From a virus: a stretch of 64,000 bases of DNA. A program made the position numbers and the translations under genes. Numbering within the stretch: position 1 is the stretch's first letter; the number at the start of each line of letters is the position of its first letter. The stretch spans positions 1-64,000 of the IMG/VR virus record IMGVR_UViG_3300012984_000001. The stretch is one strand, 5' to 3'. The notes below the pieces were generated by a model. It did no database searches, was not told the DNA's origin, and saw only the letters and a program-made list of their open reading frames with translations. Positions 1 to 47,300 of this stretch are shown here, one piece after another.

Positions 1-272
1 CAGACATTGTTACTGAGCACGTATTGGCATTTGCCGAAGAAAATCCAGAAAAATATATTGCTTACACAGAAGACCCTGGAATCAAAATGAAAGGAGTTAT
101 CAAAAGCGCGCTTGCTTCTGGAGATTTGATTTACAGCAATTATCGTTGGTTGAACGCAAATCGAGAAGTTATACTCGAAGTTTCTAAAAATCAAGATGAA
201 ATGGATGAAATGGTCAGATATTTTGAAGGAGGAATCGGAAGAACTTACTATGAGTTCCTTGTAAATAAATAA
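1..272 (+). CDS. C-terminal part of a phage protein (start lies before the window)
   Basis: Reading frame is open from the window edge to TAA at 270-272; function not recognisable. Confidence 0.6.
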   Translation, partial: DIVTEHVLAFAEENPEKYIAYTEDPGIKMKGVIKSALASGDLIYSNYRWLNANREVILEVSKNQDEMDEMVRYFEGGIGRTYYEFLVNK

Positions 273-286
273 TTTTTAAAAAACAC

Positions 287-318
287 TTGTTTCTTAAAAT
301 AAAAAATACCTATATTTG
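287..318 (+). promoter_or_regulatory. Bacteroidota sigma70-type promoter for leader 1 / tRNA block 1
   Basis: -7 element TATATTTG at 311-318 with a TTG-containing -33 region upstream. Confidence 0.7.
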
Positions 319-341
319 TAACTGAAAATAAACATTAAAAA

Positions 342-416
342 ATGCTAAGTATAAACACGATAAATATGATTGCTAGAGTTGGGGATAACTTCCCAAGCAA
401 GAGGTTTATGGTGTAA
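342..416 (+). CDS. Attenuator leader peptide 1 (MLSINTINMIARVGDNFPSKRFMV)
   Basis: 24-aa ORF with A-rich start context between promoter and terminator; codons 4-16 are all read by block-1 tRNAs; contains antiterminator strand AAGAGGTTT (399-407). Confidence 0.85.
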   Translation: MLSINTINMIARVGDNFPSKRFMV

Positions 417-438
417 ATTAAACAAATTACAAATATAT

Positions 439-475
439 AAAAGCCTCTTAATAAATTTAAGAGGCTTTTTGTTTT
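439..475 (+). terminator. Attenuator terminator 1
   Basis: AAAAGCCTCTTAA/TTAAGAGGCTTTT hairpin plus T-rich tail ending at the first base before tRNA-Ala. Confidence 0.85.
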
Positions 476-547
476 GGGAGATTCGTATAGTGGTTATTAC
501 AATAGTTTTGCAAACTATAAACACGGTTTCGATTACCGTATCCTCCA
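476..547 (+). tRNA. tRNA-Ala(TGC)
   Basis: Anticodon arm ATAGT-TTTGCAA-ACTAT, G3.U70 pair, TTCGATT T-loop. Confidence 0.85.
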
Positions 548-560
548 CAGAAATAAATAT

Positions 561-633
561 TCGTGTGTATTTCAGTTGGTAGAAAGCAATCCTGATAAGA
601 TTGTATGCGAAGGTTCAAGTCCTTCCGCACGAA
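561..633 (+). tRNA. tRNA-Ile(GAT)
   Basis: Cloverleaf; CAATC-CTGATAA-GATTG. Confidence 0.9.
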
Positions 634-639
634 CAAATT

Positions 640-711
640 GCGAGTATGGTGTAAAGGCTAACATAGGAGACTTCCAATCTTTTGATAACAGTTCGAGTCT
701 GTTTATTCGCT
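640..711 (+). tRNA. tRNA-Gly(TCC)
   Basis: Cloverleaf; GGAGA-CTTCCAA-TCTTT; U73. Confidence 0.9.
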
Positions 712-715
712 CAAT

Positions 716-787
716 GGTCTATTTGTGTAATGGTAGCAGTACTGGCTTGTCACGCCAGAGGCGAGAGTTCGATTCTCTCATAGACCG
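716..787 (+). tRNA. tRNA-Asp(GTC)
   Basis: Cloverleaf; CTGGC-TTGTCAC-GCCAG; G73. Confidence 0.9.
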
Positions 788-791
788 CAAT

Positions 792-862
792 GGCTTAGGT
801 AGTTTAATGGTAAAACACTTCTCTTGTAAAGAAGATACGGGGTTCGAATCCCACGTAAGCCT
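792..862 (+). tRNA. tRNA-Thr(TGT)
   Basis: CTTCT-CTTGTAA-AGAAG anticodon arm; imperfect T/acceptor stems. Confidence 0.8.
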
Positions 863-866
863 CAAT

Positions 867-937
867 ACCTTGTTTGCATAATGGAAGTGCCGATGTTTTA
901 CATGCATCTGGCGGTAGTTCGATTCTACCACAAGGTA
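867..937 (+). tRNA. tRNA-Val(TAC)
   Basis: Cloverleaf; GATGT-TTTACAT-GCATC. Confidence 0.9.
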
Positions 938-943
938 CAAATT

Positions 944-1016
944 GTCGGTATAGCATAAATGGAAATGCAGAACACTTCTAATGTTCCGATTGGCAGTTCG
1001 AATCTGTCTATCGACT
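944..1016 (+). tRNA. tRNA-Arg(TCT)
   Basis: Cloverleaf; GAACA-CTTCTAA-TGTTC. Confidence 0.9.
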
Positions 1017-1025
1017 CAATTAAAT

Positions 1026-1098
1026 CGCCTCGTAGCTCAATCGGTGGAGCAGCGCACTCATAATGCGAAGGTCAAGAGTTCGAAACTCTTCGAGGCAA
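1026..1098 (+). tRNA. tRNA(CAT): elongator Met or Ile2 (lysidine)
   Basis: Cloverleaf, loop CTCATAA, C1.A72 mismatch but no GGG/CCC anticodon stem; identity not resolvable by eye. Confidence 0.85.
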
Positions 1099-1103
1099 CA
1101 AAA

Positions 1104-1176
1104 GATTTCATAGCTTTAATGGTAGAGCGTCCGACTGTTAATCGGGTGGTTGAAGGTTCGAATCCTTCTGAAATCG
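1104..1176 (+). tRNA. tRNA-Asn(GTT)
   Basis: Cloverleaf; TCCGA-CTGTTAA-TCGGG; G73. Confidence 0.9.
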
Positions 1177-1185
1177 CAAAATAAA

Positions 1186-1216
1186 TTTGGTAATCCAAAA
1201 TTTTATTTTAAATTTG
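1186..1216 (+). promoter_or_regulatory. Internal promoter for tRNA-fMet / leader 2 / tRNA block 2
   Basis: TTTG (~1186) and TAAATTTG (1209-1216) match the Bacteroidota -33/-7 consensus. Confidence 0.7.
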
Positions 1217-1219
1217 CAT

Positions 1220-1292
1220 TGTGAGATAGAGCAGTTGGTAGCTCGTGTGGCTCATAACCATAAGGTCACGGGTTCGAATCCCGTTCTCGCAA
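1220..1292 (+). tRNA. tRNA-fMet-like (CAT)
   Basis: Initiator-type D-arm GAGC-AGTTGGTA-GCTC (A11-U24), TGTGG-CTCATAA-CCATA. Confidence 0.85.
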
Positions 1293-1306
1293 CTAAAAAA
1301 TACATT

Positions 1307-1378
1307 ATGAAAAATTTAAGTTTTTGTTTATCTTATTGGTTGTCGTTTAAATACGATACGGGATTTGATATGCAATAA
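1307..1378 (+). CDS. Attenuator leader peptide 2 (MKNLSFCLSYWLSFKYDTGFDMQ)
   Basis: 23-aa ORF; codons 4-14 are all read by block-2 tRNAs; antiterminator strand ACGGGATT (1358-1365). Confidence 0.88.
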   Translation: MKNLSFCLSYWLSFKYDTGFDMQ

Positions 1379-1406
1379 TTAAAAAAAATAATTGTATTTA
1401 AAATTT

Positions 1407-1437
1407 AATCCCGTTCGAAAGTTCGGGATTTTTTTTT
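1407..1437 (+). terminator. Attenuator terminator 2
   Basis: AATCCCG/CGGGATT hairpin plus long T run, 3 nt before tRNA-Tyr. Confidence 0.85.
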
Positions 1438-1440
1438 ATT

Positions 1441-1509
1441 GGGAGTAATTCTTCGGAGAAGCCAGCTCTGTAAAAGCTCAAATAGTAGGTTCGATTCCTT
1501 CTACTCCCA
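1441..1509 (+). tRNA. tRNA-Tyr(GTA), atypically short
   Basis: GGGAGTA/TACTCCC acceptor, AGCT-CTGTAAA-AGCT, tiny D-arm, no long variable arm. Confidence 0.75.
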
Positions 1510-1512
1510 CTT

Positions 1513-1585
1513 AGGCGTATGGTGAAATGGTAAGCACAACAGTTTTAAGAGCTGTCAATTGCGAGTTCGAGTCTCGCTACGCCCA
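1513..1585 (+). tRNA. tRNA-Leu(TAA), short variable loop
   Basis: ACAGT-TTTAAGA-GCTGT; GCGAG-TTCGAGT-CTCGC. Confidence 0.85.
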
Positions 1586-1591
1586 CAAAAA

Positions 1592-1678
1592 GGAAGGACA
1601 AGCCAATTGGTGGTGGCCGCAGTCTTGAAAACTGTTAGGAGTTAATGACTCGTGTGGGTTCGACTCCCACTTCTTCCG
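1592..1678 (+). tRNA. tRNA-Ser(TGA)
   Basis: GCAGT-CTTGAAA-ACTGT, long variable arm, G73. Confidence 0.9.
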
Positions 1679-1683
1679 CAAAT

Positions 1684-1766
1684 AGAAAGTGAAACACATA
1701 GGATGTGTGCCTCCCTGCTAAGGAGTGCGAGGGTAAAACCTTTAGTTTCGAATACTACTCTTTCTG
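1684..1766 (+). tRNA. tRNA-Ser(GCT)
   Basis: CTCC-CTGCTAA-GGAG, long variable arm, G73; atypical D-arm. Confidence 0.8.
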
Positions 1767-1770
1767 CAAT

Positions 1771-1841
1771 GCTTCTCAACGTAGGTTGTGTCAATCGGTC
1801 TCCAAAACCGTATTGTAAAGGTTCGAATCCTTTGAGTTGCG
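1771..1841 (+). tRNA. tRNA-Trp(CCA)
   Basis: CGGT-CTCCAAA-ACCG; good T-arm; weak acceptor and D stems. Confidence 0.75.
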
Positions 1842-1846
1842 CTATT

Positions 1847-1919
1847 GGGAATATGGCAGATAAGGTTATTGCGGAGGACTGAAAATCCTTAGGAGTTGGG
1901 TCGGTACCAACTGTTCCCA
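1847..1919 (+). tRNA. tRNA-Phe(GAA)
   Basis: GAGGA-CTGAAAA-TCCTT; non-canonical T-loop GTCGGTA. Confidence 0.85.
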
Positions 1920-1924
1920 CAAAT

Positions 1925-1995
1925 ATCAGGAATGCTGATGGTGAAGCGAATGGATTGCAAACTCATTTTTATCGGTTCGATTCCGATTCCTGATT
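1925..1995 (+). tRNA. tRNA-Cys(GCA)
   Basis: Loop TTGCAAA, U73 discriminator, ATCAGGA/TCCTGAT acceptor. Confidence 0.8.
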
Positions 1996-2004
1996 CTAAA
2001 ATAG

Positions 2005-2076
2005 TGACTCATAAGCGATTCGAACGCCTATCCTCGGATTCGTAGTCCGAAATTCTATCCATTGAAATAATGAGCC
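2005..2076 (-). tRNA. tRNA-Arg(ACG)
   Basis: Minus-strand cloverleaf; TCGGA-CTACGAA-TCCGA. Confidence 0.9.
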
Positions 2077-2079
2077 TTA

Positions 2080-2164
2080 TGGTGCGAAGTGTGGGAGTCG
2101 AACCCACAAAGCTACAATATTCTAAGTATTGCCACTATTCCTTTCGTTGTTAAGCCAACTTCGC
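2080..2164 (-). tRNA. tRNA-Leu(TAG)
   Basis: CAATA-CTTAGAA-TATTG; encoded CCA; atypical D region. Confidence 0.8.
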
Positions 2165-2169
2165 TTTAG

Positions 2170-2242
2170 GGTGTAATGTGAGAATCGAACTCACGTTTTT
2201 TGCTTCACAGGCAAACGACTTAACCGTTAGTCCAAAAACACC
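2170..2242 (-). tRNA. tRNA-His(GTG)
   Basis: TTTGC-CTGTGAA-GCAAA; G-1/C73. Confidence 0.9.
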
Positions 2243-2247
2243 ATTTG

Positions 2248-2319
2248 TAGGAGTATCAAGAATCGAACTTGAATAACTAGAGTCAAAGTCTAGTATAATA
2301 ACCATTATATCATACTCCA
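2248..2319 (-). tRNA. tRNA-Gln(TTG)
   Basis: CTAGA-CTTTGAC-TCTAG. Confidence 0.9.
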
Positions 2320-2324
2320 ATTTG

Positions 2325-2396
2325 CATTCCGTATGGGAATCGAACCCATGTCTCCTGATAGAAAGTCAGACGTGTTAACCACTTCACTAACGGAAC
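2325..2396 (-). tRNA. tRNA-Glu(TTC)
   Basis: TCTGA-CTTTCTA-TCAGG. Confidence 0.9.
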
Positions 2397-2402
2397 TTTT
2401 TG

Positions 2403-2473
2403 TCTAATAGTCAGGATTTGAACCTGAGTACTCCTCCTTCCAAGGGAGGCATGAAACCGTGCTTCGCTACTAG
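2403..2473 (-). tRNA. tRNA-Pro(TGG)
   Basis: CCTCC-CTTGGAA-GGAGG; C1-G72, A73. Confidence 0.85.
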
Positions 2474-2477
2474 AAAT

Positions 2478-2509
2478 AAAAAAAACCACTCTGATTAAGA
2501 GTGGTTTTT
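2478..2509 (-). terminator. Attenuator terminator 3
   Basis: AAAAACCACTCT/AGAGTGGTTTTT hairpin with U8 tail on the minus strand, 4 nt before tRNA-Pro. Confidence 0.85.
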
Positions 2510-2532
2510 AAGTTTTTATATTGATAACAACA

Positions 2533-2604
2533 CTATACAGAAATTCCACCCATAAGTAAATTATGTTGCGGAAGGCGTTCAATATTATTTTTAATAGTTT
2601 TCAT
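2533..2604 (-). CDS. Attenuator leader peptide 3 (MKTIKNNIERLPQHNLLMGGISV)
   Basis: 23-aa ORF; codons 9-14 GAA CGC CTT CCG CAA CAT match the six block-3 tRNAs; antiterminator strand GGGTGG (2546-2551). Confidence 0.9.
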   Translation of the reverse strand: MKTIKNNIERLPQHNLLMGGISV

Positions 2605-2608
2605 GTTG

Positions 2609-2616
2609 CAAACATA
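2609..2616 (-). promoter_or_regulatory. -7 promoter element for leader 3 / tRNA block 3
   Basis: TATGTTTG on minus strand 4 nt upstream of the leader ATG (near-leaderless transcript). Confidence 0.65.
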
Positions 2617-2670
2617 TAAAATATTTTTTATATATACACTATGATTTAAATATTATATTACATTAAACTT

Positions 2671-2700
2671 TTGTTGTTCTTTATTTTTTATCTTTGTTTT
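2671..2700 (+). promoter_or_regulatory. Promoter of tail/structural operon
   Basis: TATCTTTG at 2689-2696; TTGTTGTT...TATCTTTGTTTT also found at 52813-52840. Confidence 0.6.
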
Positions 2701-2713
2701 AAAATAATTAAAG

Positions 2714-3451
2714 ATGATTTCTATCAACAAATTCCGAAATACAATACTGTTCTTGCTTGAAAAGAATAATCGTGGTTTTTTGGGGCCACAAGTTCTTGAT
2801 TCATTTGTTGACTTGGCTCAAATTGAAATTTTTGAGAATCTATTTTTTCAATACAACAAATGGCTAAACAATCAATCAAGACATTTAGCAAATACAGAGT
2901 TTGCGGATATTCCAAAAAACATTAAAGAACAGATTGATTATTTTTCTGAATACTCAACGACAGGGAATTTCACGTATGATGCTCCAAATGATGTATGGAA
3001 ATACAACGGAACTGATATTTTATACAGAACAGAAGGATTGTCGTTGGTAAATTCTTCTGGAAAAAAAGTAGATATTGAGGAAGTTTCTAAAGGTTCCGCA
3101 TGGAATAACATGATAAACTCAAAAATAAATCCACCATCTGTGACATTTCCTATTTACACAAAAATAAAAGATGGGTACCGTGTTGCTCCAAAAGCAACTA
3201 CAGGATATAGCGTTGAATTATTTTTCATAAGAAGACCAAAGGCTCCAAAATGGACTTATATCGAAGATGCAAACGGAAATCCATTGTTTAATGCTGGAGC
3301 GTCCGATAGACAAGATATAGAATTGGATGAAAGTTTGTTTTATCCGCTTGTAATGAAAGTAATGTCGTTTTGTGGACTTTCAATACAAGAATCAGAAATA
3401 TTAACCGCTGCAGCAAATGCAGAAATAGCAATCGATCAGAAGCAATCATAA
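2714..3451 (+). CDS. Virion structural protein (tail ring/adaptor-like)
   Basis: 245 aa, first gene of the structural operon; resembles ring proteins of Bacteroidota podoviruses; assignment by recall and synteny. Confidence 0.6.
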   Translation: MISINKFRNTILFLLEKNNRGFLGPQVLDSFVDLAQIEIFENLFFQYNKWLNNQSRHLANTEFADIPKNIKEQIDYFSEYSTTGNFTYDAPNDVWKYNGTDILYRTEGLSLVNSSGKKVDIEEVSKGSAWNNMINSKINPPSVTFPIYTKIKDGYRVAPKATTGYSVELFFIRRPKAPKWTYIEDANGNPLFNAGASDRQDIELDESLFYPLVMKVMSFCGLSIQESEILTAAANAEIAIDQKQS

Positions 3452-3454
3452 GTT

Positions 3455-4378
3455 ATGAGTTCAATGAATCCTGCCGAATATTATGAAAATGAAGACAACC
3501 ATGGTAGTTATCAATACGTAAACCTAGAGGAGTTGGTTATAAATTTCTTGACTGACTGGACTGGTGACGGAAAAATTTTAAATAAAGTGTCTCGTGCAAA
3601 AGTTATAGCCAAATTCAAGCAAGGGATAAAAAAGTTTAACATGAACGCATTGCGCGCGAAAAAAACTGTAGAACTAGAACTTGGAGACACTTTAGATATT
3701 ATTATGCCCCCGGATTATCTCAATTGGGTGAGAATTTCTTATGTGAACCCAGAAACAGGTGAATTGATGGGTTTATCCAGAAATGACAAAATCCCTATGG
3801 GAAGTGCGTACTTACAAGATGATAAAGCTGATATTCTTTTCGATGATGAAGGATTTATTTTAGAAGGAACTACGTATTATGATGAATTAAATGACACAAT
3901 AAACTTAAACAAAAGAACTTTTTTAGGTTATATGGATTGTGGATGCATCGGAAATTATGTCGGATATTGGGGTGGTTACGGGTATGATTATTCGTATATG
4001 CCGACTCCTCCTCCTACAAATTTTCTTCTTGACCCGTCTCAAAATGCAAACGGTTATTTCAACATAGACCAAGAACAAGGCAGAATTCATTTTAGTTCAG
4101 ATAATGCGAGTAGAGTTATAATGCTTGACTATATCTCAGATGGTTTGCAACACGCAAAAGATACTGATGTAAAAGTGATAAAACTTGCAGAAGAGGCTCT
4201 TTATAATTTCGTTAACTACGAATTAATGAAGACTCTGAATAATGTTCATATGTATGAGAAACGAGATGCTAGAAGAGCATGGGAAGCGGAATACAAAAAT
4301 GCTAAAATAGCAATGATGGATATTAAAATTGACGACGTTATGTTGTTTTTAAACGCTAAGAATCGATGGGTACATTAA
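3455..4378 (+). CDS. Virion structural protein (tail tubular/ring-like)
   Basis: 307 aa; PPDYLNWVRIS and LDYISDG motifs; directly precedes the stabilisation protein. Confidence 0.6.
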   Translation: MSSMNPAEYYENEDNHGSYQYVNLEELVINFLTDWTGDGKILNKVSRAKVIAKFKQGIKKFNMNALRAKKTVELELGDTLDIIMPPDYLNWVRISYVNPETGELMGLSRNDKIPMGSAYLQDDKADILFDDEGFILEGTTYYDELNDTINLNKRTFLGYMDCGCIGNYVGYWGGYGYDYSYMPTPPPTNFLLDPSQNANGYFNIDQEQGRIHFSSDNASRVIMLDYISDGLQHAKDTDVKVIKLAEEALYNFVNYELMKTLNNVHMYEKRDARRAWEAEYKNAKIAMMDIKIDDVMLFLNAKNRWVH

Positions 4379-7300
4379 AATTTCAAAACTTTTTCTCTAA
4401 GGGTACCGTAAATAAAGATTCTGACGAACGTTTCGTTAGTCCTGATGAATTGATAGATGCGGAAAACTTTTTCGTTACTACGGTCGACTCTTCTGATATG
4501 GGAGTTGGAAAAAATGCATTAGGAAATGCAAAAAAATCCAATTACAACATTGTTGGGGGTAAAAACTATGGAACCGGAGTTGACAGCACCAATAATTTTA
4601 TCTACAACATCGTAAAAGGTACACTGTACGATTACATCATTGAATACAACACTGAAACTGGATTATCTGAAATTGTGTTGCAAAGCACAACCGGAACTCG
4701 ATTAAACCTAAAAGAAGGAGAACGCGTTATTAATGTTGATGTTATTTTCAGTGACAAGCCATATAATCCGGTTACTAAAGAAGGTGGAAATTTACTAAGA
4801 TTCGATGGAGATAGCAATCCTCCAAGAATCATAAATATAAATCGATCAAAAACATTTGGTATCGATGGATTTACCGCAGATGAAATAATGCTTATCAAAG
4901 CACCCCCATTATATCCTCCTACGGTTGTACAAAAAAATACATTAACGGCATACCAAAACTTTATGACGGATAAATTCATCTCATTTGCTTATAGATATAA
5001 GTACAAAGATGGATATTATTCAGCTATTTCCAGTGGACAAGAATATACGTTTACTCCTGGAAGATTTGAATTAGATTTTGCTTCTTTTGAAAATAAGGGA
5101 ATGCTGAATATATTCAATGCATGTGATATTTCGTTCAATACCGGACCACGAGAAGTTGTTGCTATAGACCTTTTATTTAGAGAAAGCAACAACACAGTTT
5201 TTTATTTAATTGACCAATATTTCAAAACGGAGGAATCTTGGGCCGACAATACTGTTCAAAGCATTCAGTTCGATAATAGCAAAGTTTATACTCCGCTTCC
5301 AGAAGACCAATTCTACAGAGTATGCGATTATATTCCTGATAATTGTGTAGCTTCTACAGTGGCTTCAAATAGAGCTTTTATTGCCAATTTTAGACAAGGA
5401 CATGATTTGATTGACAAGAATGGAGATAATGTGGTCATGGATTATACTGTTGATTTGATTTCGAATGACTTCAATTCTACAGATGCCGTTGTAACCCAAA
5501 TAAATTCAACTTCTCCTTTTGACGGCAGTACAATTGTAAAAGGACGTGTGAGATTTAATTTTACGGATGCTATTTTAACCAAAGGTTCCGTAATATTTTT
5601 GACTTTTAACATCAATTCTTCGTTTATAGCAGACGGAACTCCATATACTGATGTATTTCAAAATACGTATAATTTTATTTTAGAGGAAGATTACAGCAAT
5701 ATTGAAGATTTGATTTTAGATACTGCGAATGGATTTAAGACAAATTTGGAAGGATATTTCAGTGAATACTTAAAGACTACATCATTGCAAATTCCTGCTG
5801 ATACAATTATTCCGTTTACTTTTAATGGCTTTTTGCTTTCGGTTGTAAATGCAAATACTTTTGATGTTACATTGCCTACAGTCAGATATGAAATAGACAA
5901 ATCTCCAGACCCTAATGTATTCGCAAATGAATATTTCAAAGATGTTTCAACTGTAGGTTCGTCAAATACTATTGCAAGCAAAAAATCAATGAAATCTTAT
6001 AGAAGTTATGAGGTTTGCATGGTTTACTTGGATGATAAGAATAGGCCGACTACCGCTTTGACAAGTGCTACAAATACAGTTTTTGTGCCAATTCAAAATA
6101 GTATAAAGCAAAACATCATAAACGTACATATTCCGACAACTCAAAAACCGCCTGTAGGATTCAATACATATCGTTTTGGAATTAAGGAGAACCGAACGCC
6201 TTATGAAGAGATTTATGCAAGTGTTTTTTATAAAGACGGTATTTATAGATGGGTAAGACTAGACGGAGGCAATAAAAATAAAGCATCTGAGGGAGATATG
6301 CTTTTGGTAAAAAAAGATATATCAACTAGCATGTCAACTGTTGTTCAGACAAAAGTTTTGGAATTACGATTTCAAGAGGAAGATTTCTTGACCAACAACA
6401 AAGATGAAAATGGAAACCTTATTGTAGAGTCTGCAGGAACTTATATGAAAATAAAACCTGAGAATTTCACAATTGATTATTCTGACGGGGAGTTTATTTA
6501 TTTGGAAGATAATAGTGCTGTAAAAAATGATAGGCCAATTTCTGTTTTGGGAGGAGATGCTTTTTCTAAGCCAACAGCTACTTCTGGAGTTTTTACGGAT
6601 GTTCCTATATTGCAAGGGTCTGAATTGGTAATCAATCTTCATAGTGATTACCACAGGGAAAGCCAGCAGAATGATTATAATAAAAGCTTTATAGTTAATG
6701 ATAATTATGACAATTTTGAAGACTATTACAATGCGGAACTCGCAGGGATAGCTTTTATAGGAACTTCTGGGCAAGAATTCAATAAGTCAATAATTAGAGA
6801 CCCAGCAGGAACAGGGCAAATATTTTTAAGAATTGAAGGAACCGCTGCCGGAAATGGGACAACTAGACGAGGATTTTTAGATGCGAATTTGACTTTGCGT
6901 TCTGTGAGTGGATTTTTCGTATTTGAAACTCTCGGAAAAGAGGTAAACAACAACTTATTTTATCTGACTCCTGATGTATTTACTATAGTAGATGGAGAGC
7001 ATCAATTTGTTGACCATGTTTTGGCGAAAACTTTTAATTGCTATGCACAAGGAAATGGAGTCGAAAGCCACCAAATAAGAGATGCATTCAATGAAAAGTA
7101 TGTGAGTATCGATTTTACCCCTACAGCAGTAAATAAAGATGGATACAGGCTTGAAAATAGATATGCGGATATTACGTATTCCGGCATATTTAATTCTTCT
7201 ACAAACATAAATAGGTTGAATGAATTCAATTTATACACAGCTAATTTTAAAGACGACATTGACAAGTCTTATGGTCCTATTTATAAAATAAAAGGCATTG

Positions 7301-8385
7301 AAACTAATCTGCAAGTTTTTCAAGAAGACAAAGATTCTTTCGTGTTTTACGAAAAAGATATGCTTTACAATGCCGATGGAACATCAAATCTGTCTAAAAT
7401 AGACAAAGTTTTAGGTTCTCAAGACCTGTATTTGGGAGAATATGGTATAAGTTATCATCCCGAAAGTTTTGATATATATTCTGGAACCATATATCATACC
7501 GATACAAAAAGAGGTGTTGTTTTGAAGAAAACAAATAATGGATTATTCGAAATATCTAGCCAAAAAATGAATAATTATTGGAAGAAAATGTTCCGAAACA
7601 ATACTATCAATCAGATATTGGGTAAATACGACCAATACCACGATGTATATGTTTTGAATGTAAAATATAATTCCGATCAATACGTTACATGGATTTATTC
7701 AGATTCTGATGATGGGTGGCTTGGAAGGATTACTTTCAACCCAGAAGATATGTGTCGTGTAAATAACAAATTTTTCTCTTTCCATGAGGGGGAAATTTAT
7801 GAGCATAACCAATCTACAAATAGAAATACTTTTTACGGCATAGAATATCCTAGCAAATTCACTATAAATTTTTCTCAAAATCCTAGCGAGAGAAAAATAT
7901 ATAAAAACATTGAATTTGAAGGAACTGATGCTTGGGAAGTAGAATTATTGACTGATTTGGAAACTGGATTTATAAAACAAGATGATTTTGTGAAACAAGA
8001 AGGTGTTTTTAGGGGATATACTCGAACATCAAATACGGTAATTGATAATTCAAGTTTGTCCGTTCAAGGTATAGGAAACTGTACAATAACAGGCCTTGTT
8101 CTTAATTTTTCATTCAAACTAGAAGGAGAAATTTCTATTGGAGACAAAATAGTCAACTTGAACAATCAACTTGTTGGAACAATTCAAAACAAAACAGAAA
8201 ATTCCTTAACTTTGAACTCAATAGCAAATATTGTTTCTGGTGATTATGTGATGTGTGCTAAATCGAAAAGTTCCGAAGGAAATGGATTACTAGGTTATCA
8301 CATGCAAGTTTCTGGAACATTGACAAAAAACACCAAAACTGAATTGTACGCAGTAAACACAGAAGTAATTAAAAGTTACGTATAA
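4366..8385 (+). CDS. Tail stabilisation/muzzle protein
   Basis: 1339 aa, beta-rich; N-terminal F.KG.VNKD.DER and FAYRYKY motifs typical of this family. Confidence 0.7.
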   Translation: MGTLKFQNFFSKGTVNKDSDERFVSPDELIDAENFFVTTVDSSDMGVGKNALGNAKKSNYNIVGGKNYGTGVDSTNNFIYNIVKGTLYDYIIEYNTETGLSEIVLQSTTGTRLNLKEGERVINVDVIFSDKPYNPVTKEGGNLLRFDGDSNPPRIININRSKTFGIDGFTADEIMLIKAPPLYPPTVVQKNTLTAYQNFMTDKFISFAYRYKYKDGYYSAISSGQEYTFTPGRFELDFASFENKGMLNIFNACDISFNTGPREVVAIDLLFRESNNTVFYLIDQYFKTEESWADNTVQSIQFDNSKVYTPLPEDQFYRVCDYIPDNCVASTVASNRAFIANFRQGHDLIDKNGDNVVMDYTVDLISNDFNSTDAVVTQINSTSPFDGSTIVKGRVRFNFTDAILTKGSVIFLTFNINSSFIADGTPYTDVFQNTYNFILEEDYSNIEDLILDTANGFKTNLEGYFSEYLKTTSLQIPADTIIPFTFNGFLLSVVNANTFDVTLPTVRYEIDKSPDPNVFANEYFKDVSTVGSSNTIASKKSMKSYRSYEVCMVYLDDKNRPTTALTSATNTVFVPIQNSIKQNIINVHIPTTQKPPVGFNTYRFGIKENRTPYEEIYASVFYKDGIYRWVRLDGGNKNKASEGDMLLVKKDISTSMSTVVQTKVLELRFQEEDFLTNNKDENGNLIVESAGTYMKIKPENFTIDYSDGEFIYLEDNSAVKNDRPISVLGGDAFSKPTATSGVFTDVPILQGSELVINLHSDYHRESQQNDYNKSFIVNDNYDNFEDYYNAELAGIAFIGTSGQEFNKSIIRDPAGTGQIFLRIEGTAAGNGTTRRGFLDANLTLRSVSGFFVFETLGKEVNNNLFYLTPDVFTIVDGEHQFVDHVLAKTFNCYAQGNGVESHQIRDAFNEKYVSIDFTPTAVNKDGYRLENRYADITYSGIFNSSTNINRLNEFNLYTANFKDDIDKSYGPIYKIKGIETNLQVFQEDKDSFVFYEKDMLYNADGTSNLSKIDKVLGSQDLYLGEYGISYHPESFDIYSGTIYHTDTKRGVVLKKTNNGLFEISSQKMNNYWKKMFRNNTINQILGKYDQYHDVYVLNVKYNSDQYVTWIYSDSDDGWLGRITFNPEDMCRVNNKFFSFHEGEIYEHNQSTNRNTFYGIEYPSKFTINFSQNPSERKIYKNIEFEGTDAWEVELLTDLETGFIKQDDFVKQEGVFRGYTRTSNTVIDNSSLSVQGIGNCTITGLVLNFSFKLEGEISIGDKIVNLNNQLVGTIQNKTENSLTLNSIANIVSGDYVMCAKSKSSEGNGLLGYHMQVSGTLTKNTKTELYAVNTEVIKSYV

Positions 8386-46663: not shown

Positions 46664-46748
46664 AGATTTGTGGCTGAGCGATTGAAAGCAGTTGCGGGAA
46701 ACGTGACGGGAAGTAGCTACCCCGAGGGTTCGAATCCCTCCAAATCTT
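46664..46748 (+). tRNA. Ser-type tRNA-like RNA with aberrant anticodon loop
   Basis: AGATTTG/CAAATCT acceptor, Ser-like D-loop and long variable arm, perfect T-arm; loop GGGAAAC lacks U33. Confidence 0.65.
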
Positions 46749-46763
46749 CGAGGTTATGTTTAG

Positions 46764-46864
46764 ATGTTGTTAACGAGCCTTACAATTCGTAGTCCAACAT
46801 AGTAGTTTAAAGCGGTCATCTACTTAAAATAATGACGAAAGTGTGAGTTAAGGCGTTCCTCATA
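46764..46864 (+). ncRNA. Unassigned structured RNA
   Basis: Three hairpins; loops GCCTTA/TAAGGC are complementary. Confidence 0.45.
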
Positions 46865-46899
46865 GTGTAAAGTACTTATCAGCCAAATCTTTACAAAAC

Positions 46900-46972
46900 T
46901 TCCACATAGCTCAGTCGGTAGAGCAAATGACTCATAATCATTAGGTCACAGGTTCAATCCCTGTTGTGGAAA
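46900..46972 (+). tRNA. tRNA(CAT): Met or Ile2
   Basis: Cloverleaf; AATGA-CTCATAA-TCATT. Confidence 0.88.
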
Positions 46973-46973
46973 C

Positions 46974-47272
46974 AATTAAGTTGTTAAGTTCTTTAATTTT
47001 TTGTTTGGACGGGAGTTCGACTCTCCCCGACTCCACGAATCGAGTCCGTGTAAAGTGTTCGATGGTTTGGCACACCGATATACAAAGTGCTATTTTTGGG
47101 GTCGCCTGGTTTTGACAGCAAAGCGAATTAGAAGAAATAGACTTAATTAAAAATAACTGCAAAAGTTATAAACCTTTTTGGAAACGAAGCAAAACTTGCT
47201 GCGTAATCAACGAAATTTGTGATAGCGAAAATATCACTAAACAGCCGGAGGAGATTACTTCAAATCCGGTTT
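46974..47272 (+). ncRNA. ssrA: Circularly permuted (two-piece) tmRNA
   Basis: T-arm plus 3' acceptor strand CGACTCC-A (47011-47035) lies upstream of 5' strand GGGGTCG (47098); G3.U70; tag frame 47159-47206 AKVINLFGNEAKLAA*. Confidence 0.88.
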
Positions 47273-47300
47273 AATTAAAAACAAAAAAACTACCAAAACT

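Follow-up and report, generated by a model that had tools for sequence, protein, structure and literature searches.

How does a phage control the supply of its own transfer RNAs (tRNAs)? Phage tRNA genes have been thought to compensate for codon usage, to replace a degraded host pool or to provide escape from anticodon nucleases, and no system dedicated to controlling their expression is known to us. The question is raised by an uncultured virus from IMG/VR (record IMGVR_UViG_3300012984_000001), the genome of which has 75,694 base pairs (bp), 33% GC and 123-bp direct terminal repeats. The stretch analysed here, called the window, is the first 64 kb of this genome (positions 1 to 64,000). It contains 23 tRNA genes arranged in three blocks (positions 476-2476), with virion structural genes directly downstream. 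The second block (block 2; 1441-1996, plus strand) is preceded by a short open reading frame (ORF) and a series of hairpins, and we refer to the whole as module 2. We predict with good confidence that module 2 is a ribosome-mediated (leader-peptide) transcription attenuator, which would sense a shortage of the very tRNA species that the block encodes.

The leader ORF (1307-1378, plus strand) has 23 sense codons and a TAA stop codon, and lies 62 nucleotides (nt) 5' of the first tRNA gene of the block. Its codons 4-14 (1316-1348, plus strand) are TTA AGT TTT TGT TTA TCT TAT TGG TTG TCG TTT and encode the 11-codon sensor run L S F C L S Y W L S F. By ARAGORN and Rfam, block 2 consists of seven tRNA genes, all on the plus strand: tRNA-Tyr-GUA (1441-1510), tRNA-Leu-UAA (1513-1586), tRNA-Ser-UGA (1592-1679), tRNA-Ser-GCU (1684-1767), tRNA-Trp-CCA (1771-1841), tRNA-Phe-GAA (1847-1920) and tRNA-Cys-GCA (1925-1996). 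Default ARAGORN called 3/7 of these genes and relaxed ARAGORN called 7/7. Among the four genes that required the relaxed settings, the Rfam tRNA scores of Tyr (32.7 bits) and Cys (37.1 bits) are above threshold, and that of Trp (26.4 bits) is slightly below the 29-bit cut-off. Relaxed ARAGORN is the sole caller of Ser-GCU in the window, and the homologue of this gene is annotated as tRNA-Ser(GCT) in the cultured Tenacibaculum phage Gundel_1. All 11 sensor codons belong to the set of 15 codons that the block 2 tRNAs decode, and 7/7 tRNAs are represented. Both serine codon families are used, AGT being read by Ser-GCU, and TCT and TCG by Ser-UGA. A preliminary description of this locus had placed codons 4-14 at these positions, had named the same seven tRNAs and both serine families, and had proposed that the run matches the entire block; our analysis agrees on every count.

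The match is specific to the frame and to the block. The longest run of codons from the block's own set is 11 in the ORF frame, compared with 2 and 3 in the other frames. The chance of an 11-codon window lying wholly within the set and covering seven tRNAs is about 1e-7 per position from trinucleotide frequencies, and 2e-9 per position from phage codon usage. No equivalent window was found at 145,924 positions in six frames of the rest of the genome, and none was found there in six frames for blocks 1 and 3, which have the same leader/attenuator layout as block 2. Tested on the codon sets of the other two blocks, the module 2 leader gives longest runs of 3 and 1 codons, and the diagonal of the leader-by-block matrix has longest runs of 13/11/6, with no off-diagonal run exceeding 4. 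These numbers bear on the idea that the ORF encodes a functional small hydrophobic peptide, that the hairpin behind it is the ordinary terminator of the upstream tRNA unit and that the codon match is incidental. The sensor run is indeed hydrophobic, and such codons are favoured by T-rich sequence in a genome of 33% GC. However, the codon match has a P of about 1e-7, and the two sister leaders in the window share the property while being chemically different, so we regard this explanation as scarcely credible.

The sequence between the sensor run and tRNA-Tyr shows the complete four-segment layout (1:2, 2:3 and 3:4) in classical geometry, as computed, with all elements on the plus strand. The segment 1:2 hairpin (1319-1380) pairs 1319-1346 with 1353-1380 at -14.5 kcal/mol and has an inner hairpin, 1341-1346/1353-1358. 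The antiterminator (2:3; 1354-1417) pairs 1354-1380 with 1387-1417 at -18.0 kcal/mol and contains the helices 1358-1365/1407-1414 and 1370-1376/1391-1397. The intrinsic terminator (3:4; 1407-1437) has the stem 1407-1413/1424-1430, a C-GAAA-G cap and a U7 run at 1431-1437; its free energy is about -10 to -11 kcal/mol, and tRNA-Tyr begins 3 nt past the U-run. Three of these helices had been picked out in the preliminary description as an 8-bp complement, a supporting stem and an abutting hairpin. All of them reappear in the ViennaRNA folds: 1358-1365 with 1407-1414 (8 bp), 1370-1376 with 1391-1397 (7 bp, one G.U) and 1341-1346 with 1353-1358 (6 bp, one G.U).

Masking parts of the leader switches the predicted fold. 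In the unmasked ViennaRNA fold, which represents a leader with no ribosome, the sensor codons are paired with 1353-1380 and the terminator is formed. When the sequence is masked to 1351, corresponding to a ribosome whose A site holds TGG, the minimum free energy structure switches to the antiterminator, the core of which is the 8-bp helix that uses up the 5' arm of the terminator. Masking to 1391, corresponding to a ribosome at the stop codon at 1376, leaves the terminator as the sole remaining structure. The whole leader is more stably folded than its shuffles (z = -3.07). A natural variant, the single informative one among the DNA contigs compared and found in contigs X4 and X5, carries 1358 A>G as the sole substitution within the ORF. 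It alters the peptide and preserves pairing, as G.U, in both alternative helices, which is a further argument against a functional small peptide.

We then compared 26 non-redundant modules of related and unrelated uncultured Bacteroidota-type phages. They come from at least 10 viral records, whose lengths range from 4.7 to 203 kb. Relatives (given below by L numbers, with coordinates where needed) were retrieved with the adjacent structural protein, with two tRNA words that are conserved and with a module-1 pattern. Nine anticodon types were curated by eye, and the automatic anticodon finder used for array gaps gave partial calls only; with strictly automatic, ARAGORN-only tRNA sets, the result of the leader/block re-pairing was unchanged. 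A cognate codon is present in the leader for 167/170 tRNAs that occur in the block, compared with 189/454 for absent tRNAs (Fisher p = 6e-46), and within-type Fisher tests gave p = 6e-5, 4e-7 and 4e-3; the modules share descent, so these p-values overstate independence, which has to be counted against our interpretation. Every block tRNA has a cognate leader codon in 25/26 modules, one spurious ARAGORN call in L049 being set aside. When leaders and blocks were re-paired at random, 0/20,000 trials attained the observed match: 306 codons were observed in their own set against a mean of 164 after re-pairing, and the summed runs were 236 versus 90.

Leader and block content co-vary for Trp, Cys, Lys, Asn, Leu-UAG and Ile-UAU. 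The leader L021:9088-9153 lacks TGG and its block lacks tRNA-Trp, while CTA and CTT are present, together with Leu-UAG. ATA codons are found in L054:491-541 and L049:6524-6574:- where the block has tRNA-Ile-UAU, and the Lys codon of the module-1 run is restricted to relatives with a Lys tRNA (L032, L055 and L006; not the window). A 20-codon run in L054:1041-1115 covers 11/11 tRNAs; a leader rich in N, Q, Y, F and E (L044:4097-4168) stands ahead of Tyr Asn Gln Glu Phe, and one rich in K and Y (L042:6573-6665) ahead of Lys Lys Tyr. The Ser and His codons of the L044 leader were left unmatched and were excluded from the match counts. In the module 3 peptide, the residue order differs: the window has ERLPQH, L006 has LHLRQQQEP and L032 has QRLQEPE. 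The order is scrambled between lineages and the composition, which tracks tRNA content, is kept; this points to selection on codons rather than on the peptide, and likewise speaks against a small functional peptide.

The architecture is also shared. A terminator with a U-run is found in 26/26 modules, with free energies of -9.7 to -19.2 kcal/mol, and begins 19-31 nt past the leader stop. In 24/26 modules, the sequence most complementary to its 5' arm falls within the final ~20 nt of the ORF or barely beyond the stop codon, and the codon run is in an ATG-initiated frame in 25/26. The distance from the leader ATG to the first tRNA is 103-162 nt; the exception is L034-B, which has an HNH gene in this interval. 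A TAnnTTTG motif occurs upstream of all modules (26/26), and in 13/26 the ATG is 4 nt past the motif; together with the known geometry of Bacteroidota promoters, this suggests leaderless leader messenger RNAs (mRNAs). The frame of the run is relevant to a translation-independent sensor, in which the codon run would pair with tRNA anticodons in the style of a multi-specifier T-box and the bound tRNA would stabilise one of the structures. T-boxes are a precedent for ribosome-free codon-anticodon sensing, and such a sensor would be consistent with leader codons that are those of the downstream tRNAs. It would not account for a run kept in frame with an ATG in nearly all modules, nor for the fixed spacing between an in-frame stop codon and the terminator. 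Moreover, the T-box covariance model (RF00230) had no match at E<=1 in positions 1-3000 of the window, and no T-box-like or specifier-loop-like sequence is common to the modules, the leaders of which are too diverged to align. Direct tRNA sensing by the RNA is thus very unlikely in our view. A chance ORF followed by an ordinary terminator was a further candidate, and was rejected alongside the small-peptide and T-box-like readings.

T-type terminators in otherwise diverged phages (window 1407-1430; L021:9178-9209; L048; L042) have a common loop motif, TTCGAAAGTT, which is the C-GAAA-G cap with TT/TT flanks. The T-type terminator region is miscalled as a tRNA by low-stringency ARAGORN.

In module 2, the nearest promoter-like element on the 5' side is a TAnnTTTG motif (TAAATTTG; 1208-1215, plus strand) of the Bacteroidota -7 type, a putative promoter judging by its sequence. 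A tRNA-CAU gene (1220-1293, plus strand; ARAGORN and Rfam, 67.4 bits) lies between this motif and the leader ORF, and the same order of motif, tRNA-CAU and leader is found in the relatives L032 and L055. Because the nearest promoter motif precedes tRNA-CAU, the module 2 transcript probably begins with this tRNA, which is ungated, being 5' of the attenuator. The 13 nt 5' of the leader ORF are A-rich and have no Shine-Dalgarno sequence. Absence of a Shine-Dalgarno sequence is expected in Bacteroidota.

We propose that module 2 would work as follows. Transcription would probably start at the TAnnTTTG motif at 1208-1215 and pass through the ungated tRNA-CAU into the 23-codon leader. If the block 2 codons are decoded promptly, the ribosome would arrive at the stop codon at 1376 and cover segment 2 (about 1354-1380); the terminator (1407-1430) and its U-run would then form, and RNA polymerase would halt 3 nt before tRNA-Tyr. 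If a cognate aminoacyl-tRNA is scarce, the ribosome would stall on any of the 11 sensor codons and hold segment 1. Segment 2 would then be free to pair with 1387-1417 and block the terminator, allowing read-through into the Tyr, Leu, Ser, Ser, Trp, Phe and Cys genes. With zero translation, the 1:2 and 3:4 hairpins would both form, and transcription would terminate. The leader would therefore be an OR gate over the tRNA species supplied by the block, and the products of the block would close a negative feedback loop. The response is expected to have the classical polarity since segment 2 lies at the 3' end of the ORF, and to be codon-specific. Its purpose may be to top up tRNAs that the host supplies poorly, or to replace those depleted or cleaved in infection. 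A leader made of the block's own codons implies that the phage gauges decoding speed for exactly these codons and makes tRNAs on demand. More generally, we think it likely that phage tRNA blocks are closed-loop homeostats, in which a translated anticodon inventory serves as an OR gate and newly made tRNAs re-close it. The shortage could arise from a mismatch with the host tRNA pool, from host shut-off or from anticodon nuclease cleavage.

Several further points weigh against this proposal. That the ORF is translated, that transcription stops at the U-run and that polymerase can read through are all deduced from sequence. Stalling reports charged tRNA, so amino-acid starvation would open the gate too, and extra tRNA would then be no help. 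The leader has 1-3 codons per tRNA, compared with the often longer homopolymeric runs of classical attenuators. The match between leader and block has exceptions: module 1 of L006 retains a block-1-type leader despite the deletion of Gly through Asn from the array, codons for Cys, Trp and Phe occur in L054:2545-2604 with no matching tRNAs, and TTA codons occur without Leu-UAA in two leaders, L034-A and L048. These exceptional leaders look like they lag behind recent gene loss, and the match is not absolute. The promoter motif of module 2 is 90 nt before the leader ATG with a tRNA between them, so that this leader, unlike many others, is not leaderless and may depend on processing or internal initiation. 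Finally, the antiterminator duplex energies are moderate in comparison with shuffles, with a median z of -2.6 and values below -2 in 15/26 modules.

The last two points also favour an explanation in which translation of the leader regulates the block by another route, such as Rho-dependent termination, RNase processing or transcript stability, with the hairpin and U-run acting as a constitutive partial terminator or processing signal. The codon matching is compatible with such an explanation, as it shows that translation matters but not by which route. On the other hand, a complement of the terminator 5' arm at the end of the ORF or just past the stop, and a constant spacing between stop and terminator, are what an occlusion switch needs, and the alternatives do not require them; the masking folds also switch as predicted. 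We consider regulation by these other routes unlikely. The attenuator reading, which the preliminary description had put forward for block 2 on the basis of its codon-matched leader peptide, is supported by the codon statistics and the switchable folds, and most strongly by the comparison of the 26 modules, in which leader codons co-vary with tRNA content and the terminator and antiterminator keep their positions.

The other two modules of the window are as follows. Sister module 1 (342-1177, plus strand) consists of a leader ORF (342-416) whose 13-codon run (351-389) covers 9/9 tRNAs, a terminator (439-469) and block 1 (476-1177), with Ala Ile Gly Asp Thr Val Arg-UCU CAU Asn. Sister module 3 (2004-2616) is antisense. 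On the minus strand it has a promoter motif (2616-2609), a leader ORF (2604-2533), a terminator (2509-2481) and block 3 (2476-2004), with Pro Glu Gln His Leu-UAG Arg-ACG, the Leu-UAG anticodon being read by eye. Its run E R L P Q H (2580-2563) consists of six consecutive codons for the six block 3 tRNAs, one each. Within 476-2476, block 1 contains the A- and G-first codon families, block 2 all U-first families and AGY, and block 3 the C-first families and Glu. No Lys tRNA is found among the tRNA genes called in the window phage. The convergent blocks 2 and 3 are separated by 7 nt (1996-2004), and a terminator-like hairpin was looked for between them and none was found. Two tRNAs of this array have a CAU anticodon. 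The one at 1026-1099 has a C1xA72 mismatch and is initiator-like, and the one at 1220-1293 is not like a bacterial initiator because its acceptor stem is fully paired (U1-A72; read by eye). Leader 1 contains two ATA codons, and one of the two CAU tRNAs may be a lysidine-type Ile tRNA; related blocks have a UAU-anticodon Ile tRNA in the equivalent position. Remote from the main array, at 46664-47297 of the window, ARAGORN called an 86-nt gene resembling tRNA-Phe, as well as a tRNA-CAU and a permuted transfer-messenger RNA.

We also noted rearrangements in the arrays of the relatives. The array L006:4424-5279 has an internal deletion from Gly to Leu-UAA, which includes the module-2 leader. The module-1 leader of L006 now stands ahead of Ala, Lys, Ile and then block-2 tRNAs, and this is the sole module with a leader/block mismatch. 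L032:5755-5784:-, L006:4646-4675 and L055:516-545 each hold a mini-ORF of nine codons, four of them for Lys, together with a short hairpin that has no U-run. The mini-ORF lies between tRNA-Ala and tRNA-Lys in block 1 of relatives with tRNA-Lys, and the window has neither the mini-ORF nor tRNA-Lys; it may be a Lys-specific mini-sensor acquired along with the Lys tRNA. In L044, Infernal found no tRNA in the gaps 4377-4465 (89 nt) and 4616-4712 (97 nt), despite acceptor-like end pairing, and for this reason the Ser and His codons of that leader stay unmatched. ORFs similar to HNH endonucleases lie inside tRNA arrays (L034:7731-8230; L050 about 1907-2436 and 3178-3803; L054 about 1939-2397), and some of them sit between an attenuator and its tRNAs. 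The L034 copy is annotated as an HNH endonuclease in Gundel_1. These insertions suggest that tRNA arrays are hot spots for homing elements.

The same modules are found in two cultured phages, Tenacibaculum phage Gundel_1 (NC_062747.1, Pachyviridae) and Cellulophaga phage Calle_1 (NC_062744.1, Pervagoviridae). We took L034 to be the Gundel_1 genome because its tRNAs are at identical record coordinates. Calle_1 has three modules; its T-type leader L064:2233-2322 has four Asn codons, and its block uniquely has a tRNA-Asn. The leaders are unannotated in the GenBank records of both phages, and annotation pipelines, judging by these two records, miss such leaders. The paper on the isolation of these phages only counted the tRNAs (PMC8776804). 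A blastn search of GenBank phages with window positions 1-8000 found no close relative and gave weak structural-gene matches to Flavobacterium podophages. In metagenome contigs, the module-1 pattern had 0 matches, and a protein search with ORF 2714-3448 gave five loci, none with a tRNA array. In genome contigs, the 5' word of tRNA-Tyr gave seven chance matches and no arrays. Among sequencing runs, the best DNA match to the stretch is a soil metagenome, which may be the source sample, and no RNA run was listed as containing it. The Rfam leader families had no match on module 2. Module 3 scored 31.2 and 21.1 bits with Phe_leader (RF01859) and Thr_leader (RF00506), below the gathering threshold (GA) of 55 for each, and module 1 scored 28.1 bits with Rfam trpB, below its GA of 59. 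Module 2 would work like the Rfam leader families and is a member of none. In full-text literature searches, we came across no report of tRNA genes under leader-peptide control.

If our reading is true, this would be the first ribosome-mediated attenuation shown for tRNA genes, it would explain the timing and dosing of phage tRNA arsenals, and the system would span several families of Bacteroidota-infecting phages, cultured ones included. The reach of leader-peptide attenuation would thereby grow to include RNA genes, phages and Bacteroidota, in which the mRNAs of such leaders often look leaderless. The modules may also provide a compact natural part for the simultaneous sensing of many tRNA species. 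Two cultured phage-host pairs, Gundel_1 with Tenacibaculum and Calle_1 with Cellulophaga, carry such modules, which makes the idea testable now.

Among known systems, the amino-acid leaders of enterobacteria include trpL, hisL, pheL and leuL, and multivalent ones are the thr leader (Thr and Ile) and the ilvGMEDA leader (Ile, Leu, Val). The phage modules resemble them in their short ORF, which carries the regulatory codons, in their mutually exclusive 1:2, 2:3 and 3:4 hairpins, in an intrinsic terminator directly before the regulated genes and in serving several amino acids per leader; for module 2, these features were computed over 1307-1437. They differ in that the phage module would regulate tRNA genes, whereas the enterobacterial leaders regulate biosynthetic enzymes; in that a phage leader lists up to 11 tRNA species, mostly one or two times, each encoded by the block; and in that the modules are phage-borne, with Bacteroidota-type promoters, and often apparently leaderless. 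In pheST of E. coli, a leader peptide controls an aminoacyl-tRNA synthetase operon, so that leader-peptide attenuation acts there, too, on a component of the translation apparatus and not on amino-acid synthesis. However, pheST has one amino acid and a protein product, while the phage module would yield the decoding tRNAs and sense tRNA supply directly. T-box riboswitches likewise sense tRNA status by codon-anticodon recognition and use a terminator/antiterminator switch. In contrast to the phage modules, they are ribosome-free and have one specifier codon and conserved stem I and T-box motifs; the in-frame ORF of the phage modules argues for translation.

In the literature, the nearest counterpart is the stress-inducible trn operon of Anabaena sp. 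PCC 7120, a long supernumerary and horizontally mobile tRNA array that is silent until translation is impaired (PMC8421152). It is controlled at the promoter level by the repressor TrcR, which acts on direct repeats (PMC8421152, PMC10272220). The terms 'leader peptide' and 'attenuat' are absent from the text of these two papers (PMC8421152 and PMC10272220). The phage modules would share with the Anabaena array an induction of a translation-stress type, but the latter uses a promoter repressor and not attenuation. Leaderless polycysteine short ORFs of mycobacteria are described as Cys-responsive attenuators (bioRxiv 10.1101/834739). They resemble the phage modules in placing a leaderless sensor ORF at the 5' end of an operon transcript, and differ in serving a single amino acid and protein-coding operons in bacteria, while the modules described here are phage-borne. 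As a class, the mechanism is already familiar from the leaders of trp, his, thr and ilv.

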